Positions 30,530 through 45,162 of a stretch of DNA of 61,299 nt are shown here, piece by piece; the stretch's first letter is position 1; each line of letters begins with the position of its first letter. Made by a program: the position numbers and the translations under genes. The stretch comes from a virus (taxonomy: Duplodnaviria > Caudoviricetes). The notes under the pieces are model-generated. The model was not told the origin of the DNA, did no database searches, and was given only the letters and a program-made list of their open reading frames with translations. The DNA lies in IMG/VR virus record IMGVR_UViG_3300007760_000655, positions 1 through 61,299 of that record; one strand, given 5' to 3'.

Positions 30530-30800
30530 TAAGTTGGAGGCTGTTGTAGGACAGCCTGCCTAAACCTGTTGCTCTTATACCAACCGAGGTGTTTTTCGTC
30601 ATGCCTCATCCGACTACAGGATATTTTCTCATTGAGGGGTCTTCCCGTGACCTATCCTTAGTTAAAGTCTAATCTATTTCAGCCCCATCAGGGTGACACT
30701 AACACACTAAATGTGTGGGAGGAGCATGTTAATGCCACATTGGTGGAGCTGGCTGGTACTGCCCCAGCGTGCTAAAACCATTGGATTTAATCCTTTCGCA
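30530..30800 (-). ncRNA. ssrA: Circularly permuted (two-piece) tmRNA-like gene
   Basis: T-arm GCTGG-GGCAGTA-CCAGC + CAGCTCC-A-CCA ending at 30741, a 54-nt spacer, then GGGGCTGAAATAGATTAGAC starting at 30686; 7-bp acceptor stem with G3.U alanine determinant; outer ends approximate. Confidence 0.85.
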
Positions 30801-30809
30801 GATATAGGC

Positions 30810-31195
30810 AAAAAAGTGGGGGGAGGTTTCCGCGTCTGACCTCACCCCCGCCTAGGCTACGTCTATTAGAATTTCTTTTCTCTCAAAGAGGGAAGTCGAT
30901 TCAAGGCACTAGTTTCCCATGACTTCAAGTCTCCTTATTTTAGGGCGTGAAAGACTCCTACGCCCCTAACTACATTTTTTTATCCTGCGATTCGTTTAGA
31001 ACTTGCAGTCTTAACTAGCTGGTTTGGTCTTCGCCCCTTTAGTTGCTAAGCCTTTATCCAACCACCAATCAGTACGGAATGCTATCAATACCCCCTCTGA
31101 CGAGTTTTCGGGTCAGTTGTTTCTGTTCCCCTACTTGATACTGAAGCCCTTATTTGACATTGGCTGTTAATTACTGGTTAAATTTCTCAATTTCT
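30810..31195 (-). ncRNA. Candidate structured ncRNA (~380 nt)
   Basis: Between perfect promoter 31203-31231 and a hairpin+T6 at 30810-30853; no credible ORF; many hairpins. Confidence 0.5.
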
Positions 31196-31202
31196 GAACT
31201 AT

Positions 31203-31231
31203 ATTATACTCGGAAATCACCAAAATGTCAA
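31203..31231 (-). promoter_or_regulatory. sigma70 promoter driving the ncRNA/tmRNA cluster
   Basis: TTGACA-17nt-TATAAT. Confidence 0.85.
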
Positions 31232-31635
31232 GTTATATTTTTCAGAGAAGGATTAGGTAAGAAATCCAATATACCCAAGCGGCTATTAGTCCAACCACCA
31301 AAAATGCAAATATTAAATTGTTATGTATTGTTTTCATTTTCTCCAATCGTTACGCCACAAAGGGCGTGGTTTAGTTTGTTCTTCCTCTCTTTTTTCTTTC
31401 TCTCTTTTTTCTTCCTGCAGTTTTAGGTACTGCATCATTGTTCTATCTACCTTTATTAAACCCATATTTTTAAGTTCCATATTAGTAACAATTTATGTTT
31501 CTCCCTTCTGCTATGGCTTCTAATACATCTATACCATATAATACTGAGAGGCTTTGGCAGGAGTCTGCCACTATACTATAGCCTATGATTAAACCTAACC
31601 CTAGAGTTAAAACACCCCCTATGGTTAGTATAAAT

Positions 31636-32091
31636 TTATTCAAAAGCTTCTATTCCTAACTTGTGTGAGTCTATACCGAATAATCGTATATACTCCGAGT
31701 CTTTTTTCCAACTTGTAGCGTCTGGAGTCCATTTTGTATTTACTTCATCAGCAATTTCAGTTCTGGCAACATTTGCCTCCAACGCTTTTTGTTTCAGTAA
31801 TTTTTCCTTGTCGCCTTTACTCTCGATAAGCTCATCTAGTTGCTTATCAAGACTTTGTTGCTGTTTTTTCTCTAAGCCTTTTTCGAATTGTTCCCAGAAA
31901 TCAATAGTTGAACGAAGAACTTCTTCTTCTGCTTGACACTCTGATAATCTTAATTCTGCTGCGATATATTCTTTGTCCGTAAGTTCAGGCCAATTAAATT
32001 TTTCTGCTATAGCCTCTTGCATACGTTCGTTTGCAACCAATTCTTCTTTGGCTTCATCTATTGTCATTTTGAACATAATTTTTGTAGACAT
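31636..32091 (-). CDS. Hypothetical coiled-coil protein
   Basis: ORF downstream of promoter 32141-32169 (TTGACA-17-TATAAT). Confidence 0.6.
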   Translation of the reverse strand: MSTKIMFKMTIDEAKEELVANERMQEAIAEKFNWPELTDKEYIAAELRLSECQAEEEVLRSTIDFWEQFEKGLEKKQQQSLDKQLDELIESKGDKEKLLKQKALEANVARTEIADEVNTKWTPDATSWKKDSEYIRLFGIDSHKLGIEAFE

Positions 32092-37733: not shown

Positions 37734-38471
37734 ATGAATAAATTACTAATGGCGGCTGCAGCCGTCACTTTAGCTACTTCAGCTCATGCTGCAGTCAGCA
37801 TTTCTGGTGAATATGAGGGCACACTTACACAAGCAGGTGTATACTCTCAAACATTAGACTTAAAACTAGTAGGTTCAACACCATTTGGTTCAGTAACTAC
37901 TATTGTTGATGAGACTAATACTATCACAGATTTGTATGCTACAGCTAAGTTGCGTGGTGTAGATTTAACTCTAGGAACTGTAGAATCAGTAAGTACTATT
38001 AAGGCTTCAACTACTATAGGAGGTATGACGGTAACTATGTCTAAACCTTCCGCTGGTAAAGAATCTTTAGATATAAAAGGCAAATTTGGTGGAGTCGATG
38101 TAACAGTCGAGGACTTAACCAGAGATGACCGTGAAACTACTATTGGTACTACTGTAGCAGGTGTTACCTCTACTATGAGTTATCAAAAGACTACTGCTGG
38201 CACTGTATTGGATATAGATGCTAGTACTAAAGTTGGTAGCTTCACAGTTGCACTAGAGCACGATAAAGCAGCTGATGATACAAGTTCTAATGGTGGTTCT
38301 GTTTCTATGCCTTTAGGTATGGTAGGAACTGTTAAAGGTGGAGTATCTATAGCATCAACTGATGTCAAGACTTATTCTTTAGAAGTCACACAAGGCATAC
38401 TCACTGGGAAGTGGGAGAAGGTCGGTGACGCAGACGGAGTGGTTTCTGTAGTTGCGAAAATTAACTTCTAA
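37734..38471 (+). CDS. Outer-membrane porin-like beta-barrel protein
   Basis: Signal peptide (AHA), alternating beta-strand pattern, C-terminal Phe (AKINF). Confidence 0.7.
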   Translation: MNKLLMAAAAVTLATSAHAAVSISGEYEGTLTQAGVYSQTLDLKLVGSTPFGSVTTIVDETNTITDLYATAKLRGVDLTLGTVESVSTIKASTTIGGMTVTMSKPSAGKESLDIKGKFGGVDVTVEDLTRDDRETTIGTTVAGVTSTMSYQKTTAGTVLDIDASTKVGSFTVALEHDKAADDTSSNGGSVSMPLGMVGTVKGGVSIASTDVKTYSLEVTQGILTGKWEKVGDADGVVSVVAKINF

Positions 38472-38494
38472 ACAATACTAAGTTAAAAACAATG

Positions 38495-38522
38495 AACCCG
38501 ACCTCGTGTCGGGTTTTTTGTT
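38495..38522 (+). terminator. Intrinsic terminator
   Basis: AACCCGAC-CTCGT-GTCGGGTTTTTT. Confidence 0.8.
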
Positions 38523-38744
38523 CTGTTACTATATTTTTAGCGTATTTTTGAGTCTTGGAAACAGGCTCTACATATATTGGAAATTATTAAATCAAAACAC
38601 CAAAAGGTTAATTTTCAACCAAATTTTTTGATTTAAAACTTTTGGTTTCAAACTTCGCTATTTCATTATTGATACGGACAAGTCGCTATGAATTGGTAGG
38701 ATTCTACTCAATAAATTATATTGACAAGTGGTTGAAAAAACTTC

Positions 38745-38773
38745 TTGACAAAATGGTTAAAATTCGGTATAAT
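38745..38773 (+). promoter_or_regulatory. sigma70 promoter
   Basis: TTGACA-17nt-TATAAT. Confidence 0.85.
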
Positions 38774-38821
38774 AATGTTTTAAAAATTTGGAAATTTAAC
38801 TAAAATTTAGAGAGGAACGAA

Positions 38822-39064
38822 ATGACAATGGTTACAAAATCAGTTACTAAACAAGAGGTTGACGGGTTTTTGGGTATAGATACTCAAATTAACTGCTCGG
38901 ATAACCCACTAGAGGAAGCAGTAGCGATACTCACTGATTTAATCAATGGTGATTATTCCGTAGACCAATTGCGTAGAGATATGCACGAATGGAAGGATAC
39001 ATGGACTGTTATTACACCTAAAGAGCGTCCAGCACCAATGCCACCAATGTCGCCGTTTGAGTAA
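38822..39064 (+). CDS. Hypothetical protein
   Basis: GAGG SD, downstream of promoter. Confidence 0.6.
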   Translation: MTMVTKSVTKQEVDGFLGIDTQINCSDNPLEEAVAILTDLINGDYSVDQLRRDMHEWKDTWTVITPKERPAPMPPMSPFE

Positions 39065-39750
39065 TTACTGTTGCTAGTAATTCACAATGGAAACGAGTAG
39101 AATAGGACATTATATTAAGGGAATGACTACAAACACCCGGCTCGTTTCAACAGACTGTGTCCAGAGCAGTCTTTAAATTCCAACTGGAGACGAGGAGTGC
39201 CACCCTCGCGTTAAATAATAGACTCAATGGTAGAACCTAAGTCTGGCAAGGAGGTTTTAGCATGACCTACCGCGTATAAGGAACTATCGACTGGTGAGTA
39301 ACCTACGACAAACTGATAGTCTATCGACTGGTGAGTAGTCTGAACGAGATGCCTGAAATATGGTAACTGAGAAGATGAGAAGCCTACGGCAAACTGATAG
39401 AGCGTGTGGACAAAGGAGGTTCCACCACCCTACTCTCCTTCAAATGCCTTAAGAGTACCAGTTTATCTGTTGTACCTAAAGAGCACGGAGACGGTAAAAG
39501 GATAAGATGCTGACTTATCGTGGATAAGTAGGACGAACCCCCCGACAACAGGGGGGTAAGCCCACTCCACAGATAATGCAACCAGACTTCACGAGGTCTG
39601 TATCCACGCTGGGTTTCGAGTAAATCAAGCCCCAGACAGGTGGGAACACAAGTAAACTCGTGCGTCCTCGAGCCATGACGGAAGTGAACAGGTGTAAGGC
39701 AGCAACCATCGAACTATCACTAGGGTATTAAACTGGCTCCCCTATTCTAA
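39065..39750 (+). ncRNA. Candidate large structured ncRNA (~700 nt)
   Basis: No ORF of 60 aa or more on the + strand, visibly GC-richer, many nested helices, two H-type pseudoknots, duplicated motif. Confidence 0.6.
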
Positions 39751-39776
39751 CACACAACACATTTTCAGGAGGGAAA

Positions 39777-40256
39777 ATGGCAATTAATTATCAAGTAAAA
39801 GTTAAACAACTCAATACTGTCGTATTTGACAACATTTCAGCGAACTCTGAGGAAGAGGCTATTAAAATAGCAGAGGAGAACGCTGAGTGCGAGTGGGCAG
39901 ATAAATTGAAGGAGTACAAGGTTACTTCCCAAGCGTTTGCTTTAGAGGACAGAAAGGTCTATATTGACACTTACGAGAAATCAAGACGAGATATTGGCGA
40001 CCCCGTTCGTCCGAACTATGCAAACATTTACGAGGTTCGTGCTGACTATGATGTACCAGAGGTTGGTGAAAACTACTACCAAATACGGTATTTTTCGCCT
40101 AGACTAACCCAAAACTACCAGATGGAAACTTGCTATCATGAGGAGAACTATCCTTATAAGAGTTTACAATATGTTAGGGACGCAGCTAGTAACTGGGAAA
40201 GAGGTATTAAGAAATTAGACCTTAAATTCGACAATGACGAAACGAGGTATTTCTAA
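39777..40256 (+). CDS. Hypothetical protein
   Basis: AGGAGG SD. Confidence 0.6.
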   Translation: MAINYQVKVKQLNTVVFDNISANSEEEAIKIAEENAECEWADKLKEYKVTSQAFALEDRKVYIDTYEKSRRDIGDPVRPNYANIYEVRADYDVPEVGENYYQIRYFSPRLTQNYQMETCYHEENYPYKSLQYVRDAASNWERGIKKLDLKFDNDETRYF

Positions 40257-40945
40257 TGGAAGAAGTACCTGCCGAGTGGAAAGTTTATGTTCTCAATAAG
40301 CAAAGAGATAACCTCAAGAAATTTCTAACAGAGAAAGGGTTTAATGACGACATGATTAAAGAAGTTGCAAAAACAGGTCGCACACCAGAACAAGCAATCA
40401 AAGAGAAGTATTCTACTACTCAGGAAAAGAATGATAAAGTTCGTTCCTACCTCAAGAACTACTGGGGTTACACTCATAGAATGATAGATGAGGTTATGAA
40501 AACAGGAGAAACTCCTCATAGAGCAGAATACTTAGACGATGGAACTATGGTACTAGGCAAAAAGCTTCTCACTACTACTGAGAAGAAGGCAAACTTGGAG
40601 AAATACCTATTAGATGTAATCGGTTATACCTACAAGATGGTAGAAGAAATCCAAGAAACTGGTCTTTTAGACCCAGCATTGCAACCATACCCATCAAAAG
40701 ATAACAACCCTATCTCACCACAACACTACCAACAAGGCAACATTCAAGTACTTGACTTCATTACTGACCAGAAATTCACTTATCTAGAAGGTAATATAGT
40801 CAAGTATATTAGTCGTTATAAGACTAAAAATGGTATCGAGGACTTACACAAAGCACAATACTACTTGAATGAACTTATACAACAAGTCTTTAAACAAGAC
40901 GATAAAATAGCAGACGAAATAGACGAGGAGATACTCTGTGGATAA
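40256..40945 (+). CDS. DUF3310 (T7 gp1.7-like) domain protein with three N-terminal repeats
   Basis: SPQHYQQG...GNIVKYISRYKTKNGIEDLHKAQYYL. Confidence 0.8.
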   Translation: MEEVPAEWKVYVLNKQRDNLKKFLTEKGFNDDMIKEVAKTGRTPEQAIKEKYSTTQEKNDKVRSYLKNYWGYTHRMIDEVMKTGETPHRAEYLDDGTMVLGKKLLTTTEKKANLEKYLLDVIGYTYKMVEEIQETGLLDPALQPYPSKDNNPISPQHYQQGNIQVLDFITDQKFTYLEGNIVKYISRYKTKNGIEDLHKAQYYLNELIQQVFKQDDKIADEIDEEILCG

Positions 40946-41243: not shown

Positions 41244-41797
41244 CGAAAACAAATGGTTTTGGCTGGACTACTGCTTTGGTGGTACTTTAGGCATAATTAT
41301 AGCTTCGCTCTTCACGTCCAATCACTATATAGCTGCAACTTGGTTCATAGTATCAGGGATAATTTTTAACATCTATATGAGCGATAGAAGAAATTCCCAA
41401 CAGTGAACTTCCAATTCATCCAACATATCAAAAATAGTTAACATATGTTGCTCAAAATATGATATAATTATAGTAATTTTTAAATACTTAAAAAATCTAT
41501 TTAGTTTTTACTACTGGGTAAAGAAATTTCCGAGATATCACTACATCTGACTGATGAGCCTAAAGCGAATCATGGCAGATGTGTTGATGATATTGAAGGA
41601 AATTTTACTAAATAAATTTTTAATACGATAAATAGTCAAAGCCTATTACTGCGTTCTAAAGCCGTGTGATTATACTACTTTGAAGTTACACTACTATAAT
41701 AAGTCATATTTAAACTTTTAAAGCGTACCTAAATTTGAAGCAGAGCAGGACAATTTAATGAAGTTATATACTGCATCTTTAGTGAACTCCATCGCCG

Positions 41798-42033
41798 TCG
41801 TTTAGCGTAAACTACCTTTTCAAATCACCATTCTTCCTCGACAATTCTAGTCGATAAACCTCATTCTTAGCATAACTATGGGAAACAACTCTTAGCATAA
41901 CGGGGCAAAAATATCCTTTCAGGATAAAATTTGCCCAATTTAGCGTAGACTGATTTCCCAACTTAGCGTAAATTCTTTTAGACGAAAAAAATGCCACCCG
42001 AAGGTGGCACTTTGCTATCGTTTAGCGTAAATT
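41798..42033 (+). repeat. Six direct copies of YTTAGCRTAR
   Basis: Copies at 41801, 41866, 41891, 41939, 41962, 42021. Confidence 0.75.
41985..42013. terminator. Intrinsic terminator (mainly minus strand)
   Basis: A7-TGCCACC-CGAA-GGTGGCA; UUCG loop on the minus strand. Confidence 0.75.
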
Positions 42034-44397: not shown

Positions 44398-44541
44398 TCT
44401 CCTTAAATGGTGGGTTAAACAATATTTCTCAATTTCTAGATATAATTATACGCCGATTTCACCGAAATGTCAAGATATTTTTTTCGAAAGTTTGGTATAA
44501 ATTCATAATATGAAAAAATCAAATAAATTTGAAAAAAAGTC

Positions 44542-44862
44542 TTGACAAATAATCAAAAATCTGGTATAATCGGCGCGGCCGGCCACTTCGGCGCAGATGC
44601 GCACTTAAAAATCGGCGCTGCCGCGCACTTAGGCGCAGAGCGCGAATGATAATCATTCGCAAATGCGAATGAGAATCATTCTCATTTGGAGAGTTGAATT
44701 TAATTCAATCTAAGTTGAATATTTTTCTCTTGACAATGTCCCAAAATGTGGTATAATTATGTTATGGTCGGGAATCCGTCTGCCCGTCGGCGCAAAGTTG
44801 AATTGAATTCAAGTTAAGTTGAATATTTTTCTCTTGACAATCGTGGTGGTGTAGTGTAAAAT
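44542..44862 (+). promoter_or_regulatory. Three tandem sigma70 promoters in a repeat-rich non-coding region
   Basis: TTGACA..TATAAT at 44542-44570 and 44730-44757, TTGACA..TAAAAT at 44834-44862; ~45-bp direct repeat upstream of the last two. Confidence 0.7.
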
Positions 44863-44898
44863 CGGCGCGCAAATGCGAATGAGAATCATTCGCATTTG
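44642..44898. promoter_or_regulatory. Three Fur-box-like 19-bp palindromes
   Basis: GCGAATGATAATCATTCGC 44642-44660, GCGAATGAGAATCATTCTC 44665-44683, GCGAATGAGAATCATTCGC 44875-44893. Confidence 0.6.
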
Positions 44899-45162
44899 AG
44901 TGTAGTTATAATATTGTGTTGAATGGTGCGACAGTTAGAAGTATTCCAACCATAGCAAAGATATATAATCCAACACACCCCAAACAAAATCCAATTATAT
45001 ATTTTGGTTTCATAAGTTCATACCCCTGAAAAAGCACCAAGCGATAGCAAGGTTAGAAAATAGAATTGCACCAAGTAAAATTGTAATATGTTCTAGTTTG
45101 TATTCGGTATAGTCCATAATAAAATATTGGGGTGATTGCTCACCCCAAGTCCTAGTTAAAAG

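Follow-up and report, generated by a model that had tools for sequence, protein, structure and literature searches.

A conserved element of about 690 nt in uncultured marine phages, a probable structured RNA without a match in Rfam

The window analysed here is the whole stretch of 61,299 nucleotides (nt) of an IMG/VR virus record (IMGVR_UViG_3300007760_000655; Caudoviricetes), about 50% complete by estimate. All coordinates are given in window numbering unless a contig is named. Between the open reading frames (ORFs) ORF80 and ORF159 lies an element of about 690 nt on the + strand (39066-39754; Table 1). It is very probably a real structured RNA. The favoured explanation, held as probable, is a gene for a structured RNA outside Rfam, carried by a narrow clade of marine phages and acting as RNA. 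A preliminary description, based on the letters of the window, had proposed a large non-coding RNA or ribozyme with multiple pseudoknots at this position.

The non-coding element and its relatives

Nine viral loci were gathered via the flap endonuclease gene, and nhmmer detected the element in two of them, L010 (E 2.6e-142) and L002 (E 5.3e-139). The seven others (flap endonuclease 63-68% identical) have that gene alone in common with the window, and the element is absent. An 18-mer from the most conserved block led to 42 metagenome loci, seven of which were true nhmmer matches (E <= 3.6e-92). One of the seven, L027, is apparently the same contig as L002, with an identical element, and was not counted separately. 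The collection of homologues from viromes, proposed in the preliminary description, thus yielded eight further marine viral or metagenome contigs, which together with the window form the nine rows of alignment A5. A contig end truncates the element in L048, and the copies of L010 and L017 are alike; the rows represent about six lineages at 86-89% identity.

The carriers of the element form a narrow clade of uncultured marine phages, and wider searches added no members. A blastn search in 'distant' mode matched none of 50,697 phage records. The flanking proteins as single queries found no relatives in viral contigs, and alignments of ORF80 and of ORF245 each retrieved nothing beyond the two contigs already known. 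Viral contigs searched with a 20-mer and an 18-mer gave the known contigs and one chance locus; in genome contigs, a 19-mer hit two chance loci. ORF245, ORF159 and ORF80 were without tblastn match among cultured phages. R1, a covariance model of the central domain (115 positions), had no match at E <= 1 in five records (HTVC008M, Melnitz and three viral contigs); over 54 sources (392,579 nt) it returned only the nine known copies, an empty result that carries little weight in fragments.

The position of the element is constant. It is found between ORF80 and ORF159 in 7/7 further contigs that reach both flanks, and the gene order ORF245, ORF80, element, ORF159, DUF3310 gene and ORF101 is common to the window, L010, L002 and L051. 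Conservation begins with UACUG (39066) in every contig, despite two different ORF80 endings upstream, and ends with UUCUAACACA (39754) in the eight contigs reaching that point. In L010 the conserved end directly adjoins the ribosome-binding site of the next gene. DNA identity of five loci to the window amounts to 86-89% over the element and 78-87% over ORF80; it is 60-67% in the promoter spacer, 57-74% in the DUF3310 gene and 53-54% in ORF159, and ORF245 reaches 83-86% in the four loci spanning it. These values show that constraint on the element exceeds that on most adjacent regions and that its conservation is at least as high as in the best of them. A non-coding stretch that matches the best neighbouring genes in conservation is therefore under selection on its own sequence.

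The longest + strand ORFs in the gap between ORF80 and ORF159 comprise 30-35 amino acids (aa), and each + frame is interrupted by 14-16 stop codons in the window and by 11-20 in the homologues, in line with the lack of a long + strand ORF described before. The higher GC content was also borne out, with 0.44-0.49 in 300-nt segments starting at 39000-39600 versus 0.27-0.41 in flanking segments (starts 38550-38850 and 39750-40500) and 0.364 over the whole window. Synonymous and non-synonymous codon differences are alike in all six frames, without a coding-type excess. Small + strand ORFs lose or shift frame between lineages, the exception being a GTG frame of 23 codons that lies within the invariant 3' block and is uninformative. 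Reassignment of one stop codon (TAA, TAG or TGA) opens no + frame common to the rows; it also lengthens antisense stretches, to 189-211 codons in several rows taken singly. A decayed or hidden protein gene would most readily be placed in an antisense frame of 183 codons, which is open in L010, L017 and L051 only (in L010 as a 177-aa ATG ORF, 1598-2131, + strand) and whose length is reached by just 1/1000 mononucleotide shuffles. This frame is disrupted in other lineages, where the longest open stretch comprises 109 (window), 89 (L002) or 74 codons (L048). The antisense ORFs matched no Pfam or PHROG family, and the indels of 22, 27 and 13 nt among the rows are not all multiples of three. A hidden conserved ORF, the objection raised in the preliminary description, was thus not found among the relatives, and a protein gene of any such kind is extremely improbable. 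As far as comparison of the rows reaches, the element is shown not to code for protein. Other stretches of the window without ORFs of at least 50 aa are 44398-45162 (765 nt, GC 0.36) and 41407-41811 (405 nt, GC 0.29).

Helices and domains of the + strand

Because the long-range pairings of RNAalifold differed between runs with three and with nine rows, helices that all rows can form were sought in the alignment and then curated by hand. The model contains 18 helices with 123 pairs, two pseudoknots included, and 97.5% of its 1084 cells pair in A5. Fourteen pairs are changed on both sides, compared with 6.2 +/- 1.5 in shuffles (0/500 reach 14); controls with partners slid by 1-3 columns gave 0-5 compensatory pairs and 37-44% pairing. 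The pair count is a measure reported as rarely fooled, applied here to related rows from which the model itself was built. The compensatory changes are located in P1, P2, PK1, P3, P6, P9, P11, P12, P13 and P14. P7, P8 and P10 vary by wobble only, and P0, P1a, P15, P16 and the closing helix GAAUAGG/CCUAUUC show no variation in any row. The counts were lowered by two misalignments, a 1-nt shift of L002 and L048 in P3 and the alternative 6-bp helix that replaces P14 in L048. Covariation support, the lack of which would have refuted the RNA according to the preliminary description, was thus obtained in the form of pair counts: between-row comparison shows a + strand folding into many helices, with at least one pseudoknot, that are preserved by compensatory change.

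Table 1. Features of the locus and of the second non-coding unit (window numbering)
Feature	Position	Strand	Description
ORF245	37734-38471	+	Gene preceding the terminator-like hairpin
Terminator-like hairpin	38494-38516	+	9-pair stem, 5 G-C pairs, T run; closes the ORF245 unit
Consensus sigma-70 promoter	38745-38773	+	TTGACA, 17 nt, TATAAT; 12/12
ORF80	38822-39064	+	Small acidic protein without known family; stop codon 1 nt ahead of the element
Structured RNA element (probable)	39066-39754	+	Whole conserved extent, ~690 nt, from comparison between contigs
P0, 5'-terminal hairpin UACUG/UAGUA	39066-39079	+	Invariant in 9/9 rows; upstream flank unrelated between lineages
P1, GAAACGAG/CUCGUUUC	39090-39148	+	8 pairs, 100% of cells paired, 1 compensatory (A-U to G-C, 2 rows), 1 wobble
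P1 loop contents	39100-39106; 39119-39121 with 39136-39138	+	GAAUAGG; P1a
P2 hairpin AGACUG/CAGUCU and PK1	39152-39188	+	Loop UCCAG 39160-39164 with CUGGA 39184-39188
P3 hairpin CGAGG/CCUCG	39191-39208	+	75.6% of cells paired; outer pair C-G, U-A or mismatched
Window-private 22-nt insertion	39223-39244	+	Gap in 8/9 rows; with preceding bases forms extra hairpin AGACU..AGUCU
First AAGGAGGU octamer; mini-ORF	39248-39255; 39262-39279	+	AUG after 7 nt, 5 codons, ends with UAA
P6 domain	39280-39403	+	Closing helix 39280-39289 with 39395-39403; encloses replaceable peripheral domain 39290-39394
Central domain	39404-39609	+	Closed by long-range P7 (39404-39410 with 39603-39609)
Second AAGGAGGU octamer	39413-39420	+	Kept in 8/9 rows; AAGGCAGGU in L021
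P8, UCUCC/GGAGA	39434-39491	+	100% paired; one pair C-G, U-A or U.G; encloses P9 arm
P9 arm	39445-39458 with 39472-39485	+	12 pairs, 99.1% paired, 1 compensatory pair
P10 hairpin CGGUA/UGCUG	39492-39512	+	5 pairs, 100% paired, wobble changes only
P11, UUAUCGUGG/CCACAGAUAA	39515-39576	+	Encloses P12
P12, hypervariable hairpin	39531-39563	+	3 compensatory pairs
P13 hairpin CAGACUU/AGGUCUG	39583-39600	+	1 compensatory pair in A5
P14 hairpin UGGGUUU/AAGCCCCA	39610-39634	+	G-C to C-G in L021
Almost invariant 3' core	39660-39754	+	One varying column (A in the window, T in the other seven) in 8 rows
P15 and P16 (tentative)	39670-39675 with 39734-39739; 39683-39688 with 39716-39721	+	Predicted; invariant
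Candidate 5'-3' closing helix	39741-39747 with 39100-39106	+	CCUAUUC with GAAUAGG; predicted; invariant
ORF159	39777-40256	+	Next gene; own AGGAGG ribosome-binding site; without known family
Permuted (two-piece) tmRNA-like match	30654-30782	-	Rfam, just under gathering score
Sigma-70 promoter of second unit	31231-31203	-	12/12; upstream of the tmRNA-like match

Many of the pairings proposed from the single sequence recur in the model. The pairing GAAACGAG/CUCGUUUC corresponds to P1, with every cell paired and one compensatory change. The pseudoknotted hairpin AGACUG/CAGUCU with UCCAG/CUGGA (P2 and PK1) covaries: PK1 has five pairs, 100% paired, two of them compensatory, and reads CCAAG/CUUGG in L002 and L048, where P2 is extended by compensating insertions. 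The hairpin CGAGG/CCUCG (P3) stood in part; about a quarter of its cells fail to pair, partly through the 1-nt misalignment of L002 and L048. The next hairpin described, AGACU..AGUCU at about 39221-39244, and its pseudoknot proved to be private to the window, lying on an insertion absent from the other 8/9 rows, and are unconserved. The first AAGGAGGU octamer lies downstream of it within a 36-nt block that is invariant in 7/9 rows, L051 differing once in the spacer. The AUG and the five-codon frame after the octamer are kept in 8/9 rows, with AUA in L048.

The P6 domain is closed by nine pairs (97.5% paired, one compensatory) and comprises 112-127 nt in most rows and 63 nt in L024, in which both flanks of the inner helix are gone and the CCGAAAGG hairpin is left. 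A 27-nt internal duplication at 39307-39333, private to the window, creates a second mini-copy of the closing helix. The central domain follows. Its long-range pairing GUGUGGA/UCCACGC was correctly recognized in the preliminary description and corresponds to P7 (7 pairs, 100% paired, wobble changes only). AAGGAG/CUCCUU holds in the window only and gives way to UCUCC/GGAGA (P8), which fits 9/9 rows. The proposed UUAUCUGU/ACAGAUAA has a mismatch without compensation in L002, and its 3' strand pairs better with UUAUCGUGG in P11 (9 pairs, 100% of cells paired, one compensatory pair and four with one-sided changes). GAUAAG/CUUAUC is possible; it is mutually exclusive with P11 and was not retained as a family feature. 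CCCCCC/GGGGGG is the window's form of P12, a hairpin with five unrelated sequence versions that all fold (-11.7 to -22.5 kcal/mol), two of them with UUCG loops. CAGACUU/AGGUCUG (P13) has a compensatory pair. CUGGG/CCCAG falls within P14, for which L021 has C-G in place of G-C and L048 substitutes a wholly different helix, GCUACU/AGUAGC. Exchange or loss of peripheral hairpins and of one entire sub-domain is thus tolerated, as the comparison between rows shows, while there is hardly any change in the 95-nt 3' core. Palindromic loop motifs were considered as kissing sites and rejected, being by eye inconsistent between lineages.

The model also indicates which strand folds. On the + strand, its cells comprise 960 Watson-Crick pairs, 97 G.U pairs and 27 unpaired; read on the - strand, they comprise 960 Watson-Crick pairs, 4 G.U pairs and 120 unpaired. 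Alternation between Watson-Crick and G.U occurs in 18/123 pairs. The 97 G.U cells turn into mismatches (A.C) on the other strand, and the folded molecule is therefore the + strand. This bears on a DNA-level element, such as a replication origin, a packaging or recombination site, or a single-stranded DNA structure. Conserved non-coding DNA among phage replication genes would suit such a site, while the strand bias fits a single-stranded + molecule, a duplex DNA site would not maintain helices by compensation, and contigs from RNA libraries contain the element. A DNA-level role is accordingly considered very improbable.

Known RNA families, RNA-library contigs and the carrier phage

Rfam 15 (4227 models) gave no match at gathering score over the whole window. 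Searches of 38900-39900 up to E = 10 yielded two chance-level hits alone, mir-670 (E 0.5) and sR30 (E 7.4), whose scores fell far short of gathering, and the element in L021, L024, L048 and L017 matched nothing up to E = 5. That weak RNA genes are within reach of permissive searching is shown by the permuted tmRNA-like match it returned at another place in the window. The families GOLLD, ROOL, OLE, HEARO and raiA are represented in Rfam, and membership in them was rejected for lack of a covariance-model match. RNase P RNA was likewise unmatched up to E = 10. ARAGORN detected no tRNA gene in the 61,299-nt window and, in ten element sequences, no transfer-messenger RNA (tmRNA) at default and 90% thresholds; at 80% it made inconsistent calls in 3/10. 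Standard or permuted tmRNA was dismissed, as the tmRNA models had no match on the element and ARAGORN and Rfam found neither a tRNA-like domain nor a tag frame in it. The comparisons proposed earlier (GOLLD, ROOL, group I/II introns, RNase P) were therefore all negative, and the suggestion of a new large non-coding RNA gained from the empty Rfam search together with conservation, covariation, G.U strand bias and RNA-library contigs. The sequence data support the view that the element represents a family of large structured phage RNAs that is new and absent from Rfam. No such RNA was described in the titles and abstracts searched. A screen of IMG/VR for structured RNAs lists, in the part of the report available, 10,006 candidate viral RNAs of 29-151 nt only (PMC10690425); fragments of the element may be among them.

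A self-processing or mobile RNA, i.e. a self-excising ribozyme or an ORF-less intron-like element, would account for boundaries that are sharp and identical despite a differing upstream flank, and a large, pseudoknotted RNA with an invariant core resembles catalytic RNAs. Models of group I and group II introns, RNase P and small ribozymes remained unmatched even at E = 10. A group I intron was rejected because the upstream ORF has its own stop codon, in two forms, and the downstream ORF its own ribosome-binding site and ATG, in addition to the missing model match; the flanks are thus two complete genes, hence no exons to join. For a group II intron, too, no model matched, and the element starts with UACUG, which is not the group II 5' boundary motif. 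None of the contigs links the two flanks with the whole element removed, although rare forms drop out of contigs. As for mobility, a single locus is occupied in 9/9 contigs and no empty site is known. A self-processing or mobile nature is hence regarded as quite improbable, and the ribozyme alternative of the preliminary description gained no support.

OLE is chromosomal, occurs in extremophilic Firmicutes as a dimeric ribonucleoprotein and works with dedicated partner proteins. It is unlike the element in that no model matches and the proteins flanking the element are without known family. The sections of PMC12286853 available describe OLE as an RNA of about 600 nt with an ornate fold that acts as RNA, which are points of likeness. 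In the same sections GOLLD, a 14-mer RNA cage, and ROOL, an RNA nanocage, are presented as RNA-only assemblies (PMC12286853). GOLLD resembles the element as a phage-borne, multi-domain RNA of several hundred nt with pseudoknots and unknown function, in which conservation is marked in the 3' region, weaker in the 5' region and poor along an internal stretch, and one GOLLD derives from a marine metagenome (PMC12286853, same sections). GOLLD is often located near tRNA islands, whereas the element lies inside a protein-coding operon of a window without tRNA genes; many GOLLD members exceed 800 nt, as against about 690 nt. ROOL shares large size, ornate fold, phage origin, multiple pseudoknots, a variable linker and the lack of a known protein partner, as far as the text available goes (PMC12286853). 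It differs by the missing covariance-model match, its tRNA neighbourhood, and its hosts and habitat, the name ROOL being derived from the rumen and the element from seawater phages. The earlier comparison with GOLLD and ROOL is therefore apt in kind, i.e. for a large, ornate, phage-borne RNA, and not as family membership.

Among 24 sequencing runs listed, all or part of the stretch is present in 20, which belong to 11 studies; two are flagged as possibly the source, and 6 are recorded as RNA. Four RNA runs from four studies were compared as contigs, one of these studies being that of the possible source. Their contigs cover 38818-39703 in pieces, so contigs from RNA libraries (strand not given) do exist for the element, for which the lack of a transcript had been named as a possible objection. 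The regions 38700-38817 and 39704-40300 are uncovered in the four runs, which counts as no evidence of transcript ends. Contig depth is 5.9-163 on the element pieces listed versus 2.7-7.2 on ORF80; it is one figure per contig with strains summed and does not rank expression. Contigs from ORF80 reach only 17-29 nt into the element, the bridging rule requiring 31 letters. One X17 contig begins at 39096, inside P1, behind 24 adapter-like letters. It might reflect a common end of fragments; as a single record it is no evidence of an RNA end.

The X17 contig covering 39405-39648, which lay outside model building, differs from the window at 20 places. Three compensatory pairs account for six of these, 39452+39477 and 39453+39476 in P9 and 39583+39600 in P13. 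The two P9 pairs are adjacent, one of them being a pair that already covaries in A5, and the outer pair of P13 changes from C-G to U-A. Five of the remaining differences keep the pair by wobble, one breaks a loop-adjacent pair and eight are unpaired. An X20 contig breaks both loop-side pairs of P13. In contigs from three runs, 39301-39391 is replaced by two other inserts of 39-40 nt, which again marks the inner P6 domain as replaceable; these joints were found at 85% likeness, some being short-sided.

The window belongs to a lytic-type phage with its own replication genes, namely DNA polymerase, DnaB-like helicase, SbcC-like nuclease, ribonucleotide reductase and flap endonuclease. Runs containing the region are marine or seawater wherever the organism label is in plain words. 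The gene content is in part shared with phages of SAR11 and OM43 bacteria. It forms a mosaic, in which a flap endonuclease with 47% identity to T5-like phage enzymes stands beside a 609-aa cyclase with 59% identity to Pelagibacter phage HTVC008M and 49% to Methylophilales phage Melnitz; CsgG, CsgF, PC4, glutamine synthetase and NifU were the further domains found in 63 scanned ORFs. The PC4 gene is not among ten small ORFs scanned between 41233 and 47265. Cyclase (49-59% identity), curli CsgG/CsgF and PC4 are genes that the phage has in common with Melnitz and the pelagimyophages, for which they have been reported too.

Upstream of the promoter, ORF245 (84-89% identical protein in sister contigs) has a signal-peptide-like N-terminus, a repetitive body rich in Thr, Ser and Gly and a C-terminal Phe, and by eye resembles an outer-membrane beta-barrel. 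It is without Pfam or PHROG match, and no relative was found in cultured phages. The promoter sequence is identical in L010 and L002. ORF80 has 75-82% aa identity to these two contigs and occurs in two forms. The long form, extended at its C-terminus by a tail of some 37 aa, is present in L010 (2222-2575, - strand), L002 (4446-4796, - strand), L051, L017 and L024; the short form, which ends where the element begins, is that of the window, L021, L042 and L048. The forms do not track the element lineages, L042 combining an L010-like element with a short ORF, which suggests recombination at the junction (39062-39066). ORF159 is only 41% identical (aa) to its counterparts in L010 and L002. For neither ORF159 nor ORF80 did hits in the ESM Atlas rise above chance (best scores 0.76).

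A second non-coding unit, spanning about 30650-31640, is conserved in L010, L002 and L051, and compensatory changes occur in its hairpins as well. Its tmRNA-like match (Table 1) reaches 45.3 of 47 bits with tmRNA_permuted (E 1.8e-7) and 43 of 50 bits with alpha_tmRNA (E 1.3e-10), and was missed by ARAGORN and by the gathering-score Rfam scan. With about 1 kb the unit exceeds the length of tmRNA and so may hold more than a tmRNA. According to the part of the report available, an early promoter precedes the two-piece tmRNA of Melnitz-type phages (PMC9004378). The two-piece tmRNA of Melnitz and the pelagimyophages offers a parallel to the element, as the gene of a large, stable RNA that follows a promoter of sigma-70 type; the element has about twice the size of tmRNA.

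Mode of action and wider meaning

A trans-acting particle is somewhat favoured over a cis-acting leader. The element would be transcribed together with ORF80 from the sigma-70 promoter. It would function at the RNA level, most probably in trans, forming a stable particle that binds a host or phage factor or itself. The particle is pictured as closed: a 5' domain would be followed by the P6 domain, whose contents can be replaced, and by a stable central domain that P7 closes off, and the 3' core may pair back to the 5' domain. Action in trans is preferred because the constraint on the element is far above that on ORF159, the predicted architecture is closed and the peripheral swaps surround a fixed core.

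A giant cis-acting leader in a polycistronic mRNA would instead control translation of, or read-through into, ORF159 and later genes, or the stability of the message. Neither a terminator nor a promoter separates the element from ORF159, and both the fixed position between the two genes and the end of conservation in L010, directly before the next ribosome-binding site, are what a leader would lead one to expect. At 690 nt with many domains, however, the element is far above the size of known cis regulators, and ORF159 is poorly conserved while the element is nearly fixed. Furthermore, none of the predicted helices includes the ribosome-binding site of ORF159, and no riboswitch or leader family was matched in Rfam 15. 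A leader is on balance unlikely, and the element is probably not a switch for ORF159.

The partner of such a particle is hinted at by the octamers. AAGGAGGT occurs three times in the 61-kb window, two of the three copies being inside the element (39248 and 39413). The two perfect Shine-Dalgarno octamers AAGGAGGU point to the 30S subunit; they are the only sequence-level lead to a partner, and a weak one. Binding to the ribosome is a doubtful proposition, and self-assembly in the manner of ROOL or GOLLD is rated slightly lower still. An almost invariant 3' core that by prediction has no stable secondary structure of its own would fit tertiary contacts or a binding surface.

Several observations weigh against a trans-acting structured RNA. 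The folding energy of the whole element is no better than that of shuffles (z +0.41; 14/20 shuffles as good). Only the central domain stands out (z -3.35, 1/200 shuffles as good); the 5' domain has z -0.45, and the 3' domain, although best conserved, folds worse than shuffles (z +1.43). The dense pairing noted in the preliminary description therefore exceeds chance by cross-contig comparison and not by the energy of a single sequence, and the case rests on the comparison between contigs. The rows are few and close, which limits the number of compensatory events, and since the model was derived from them, the shuffle and slide controls flatter it somewhat. Neither P15 nor P16 nor the 5'-3' closing helix varies, which puts them beyond the reach of covariation, and a local hairpin competing with P11 also has one compensatory change. 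The RNA-library data are contigs, silent on strand, ends and level, and DNA may occur in such libraries. Nothing terminator-like was found downstream of the gap on the + strand, and without a terminator after the element a separate stable RNA would need processing. As for the Shine-Dalgarno lead, L021 breaks the second octamer, L048 lacks an AUG after the first, and pyrimidine tracts offer local pairing partners for both.

To our knowledge, few bacterial or phage RNA classes beyond rRNA exceed 500 nt, namely group I and II introns, OLE, GOLLD, ROOL and HEARO. The large RNA classes studied so far each showed an unexpected RNA architecture. A functionally new class of giant phage RNA, made early in the infection of streamlined marine bacteria, is conceivable on a speculative basis: a ribosome decoy or loading platform mediated by the Shine-Dalgarno octamers, an RNA-only particle, or a catalytic or ligand-binding 3' core. 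The element adds a further class of large RNA with a defined length, a domain plan, natural 'deletion mutants' that mark the dispensable parts and a near-frozen core of 95 nt. As part or all of the stretch is present in runs of 11 studies, it could be an abundant player in marine infections.

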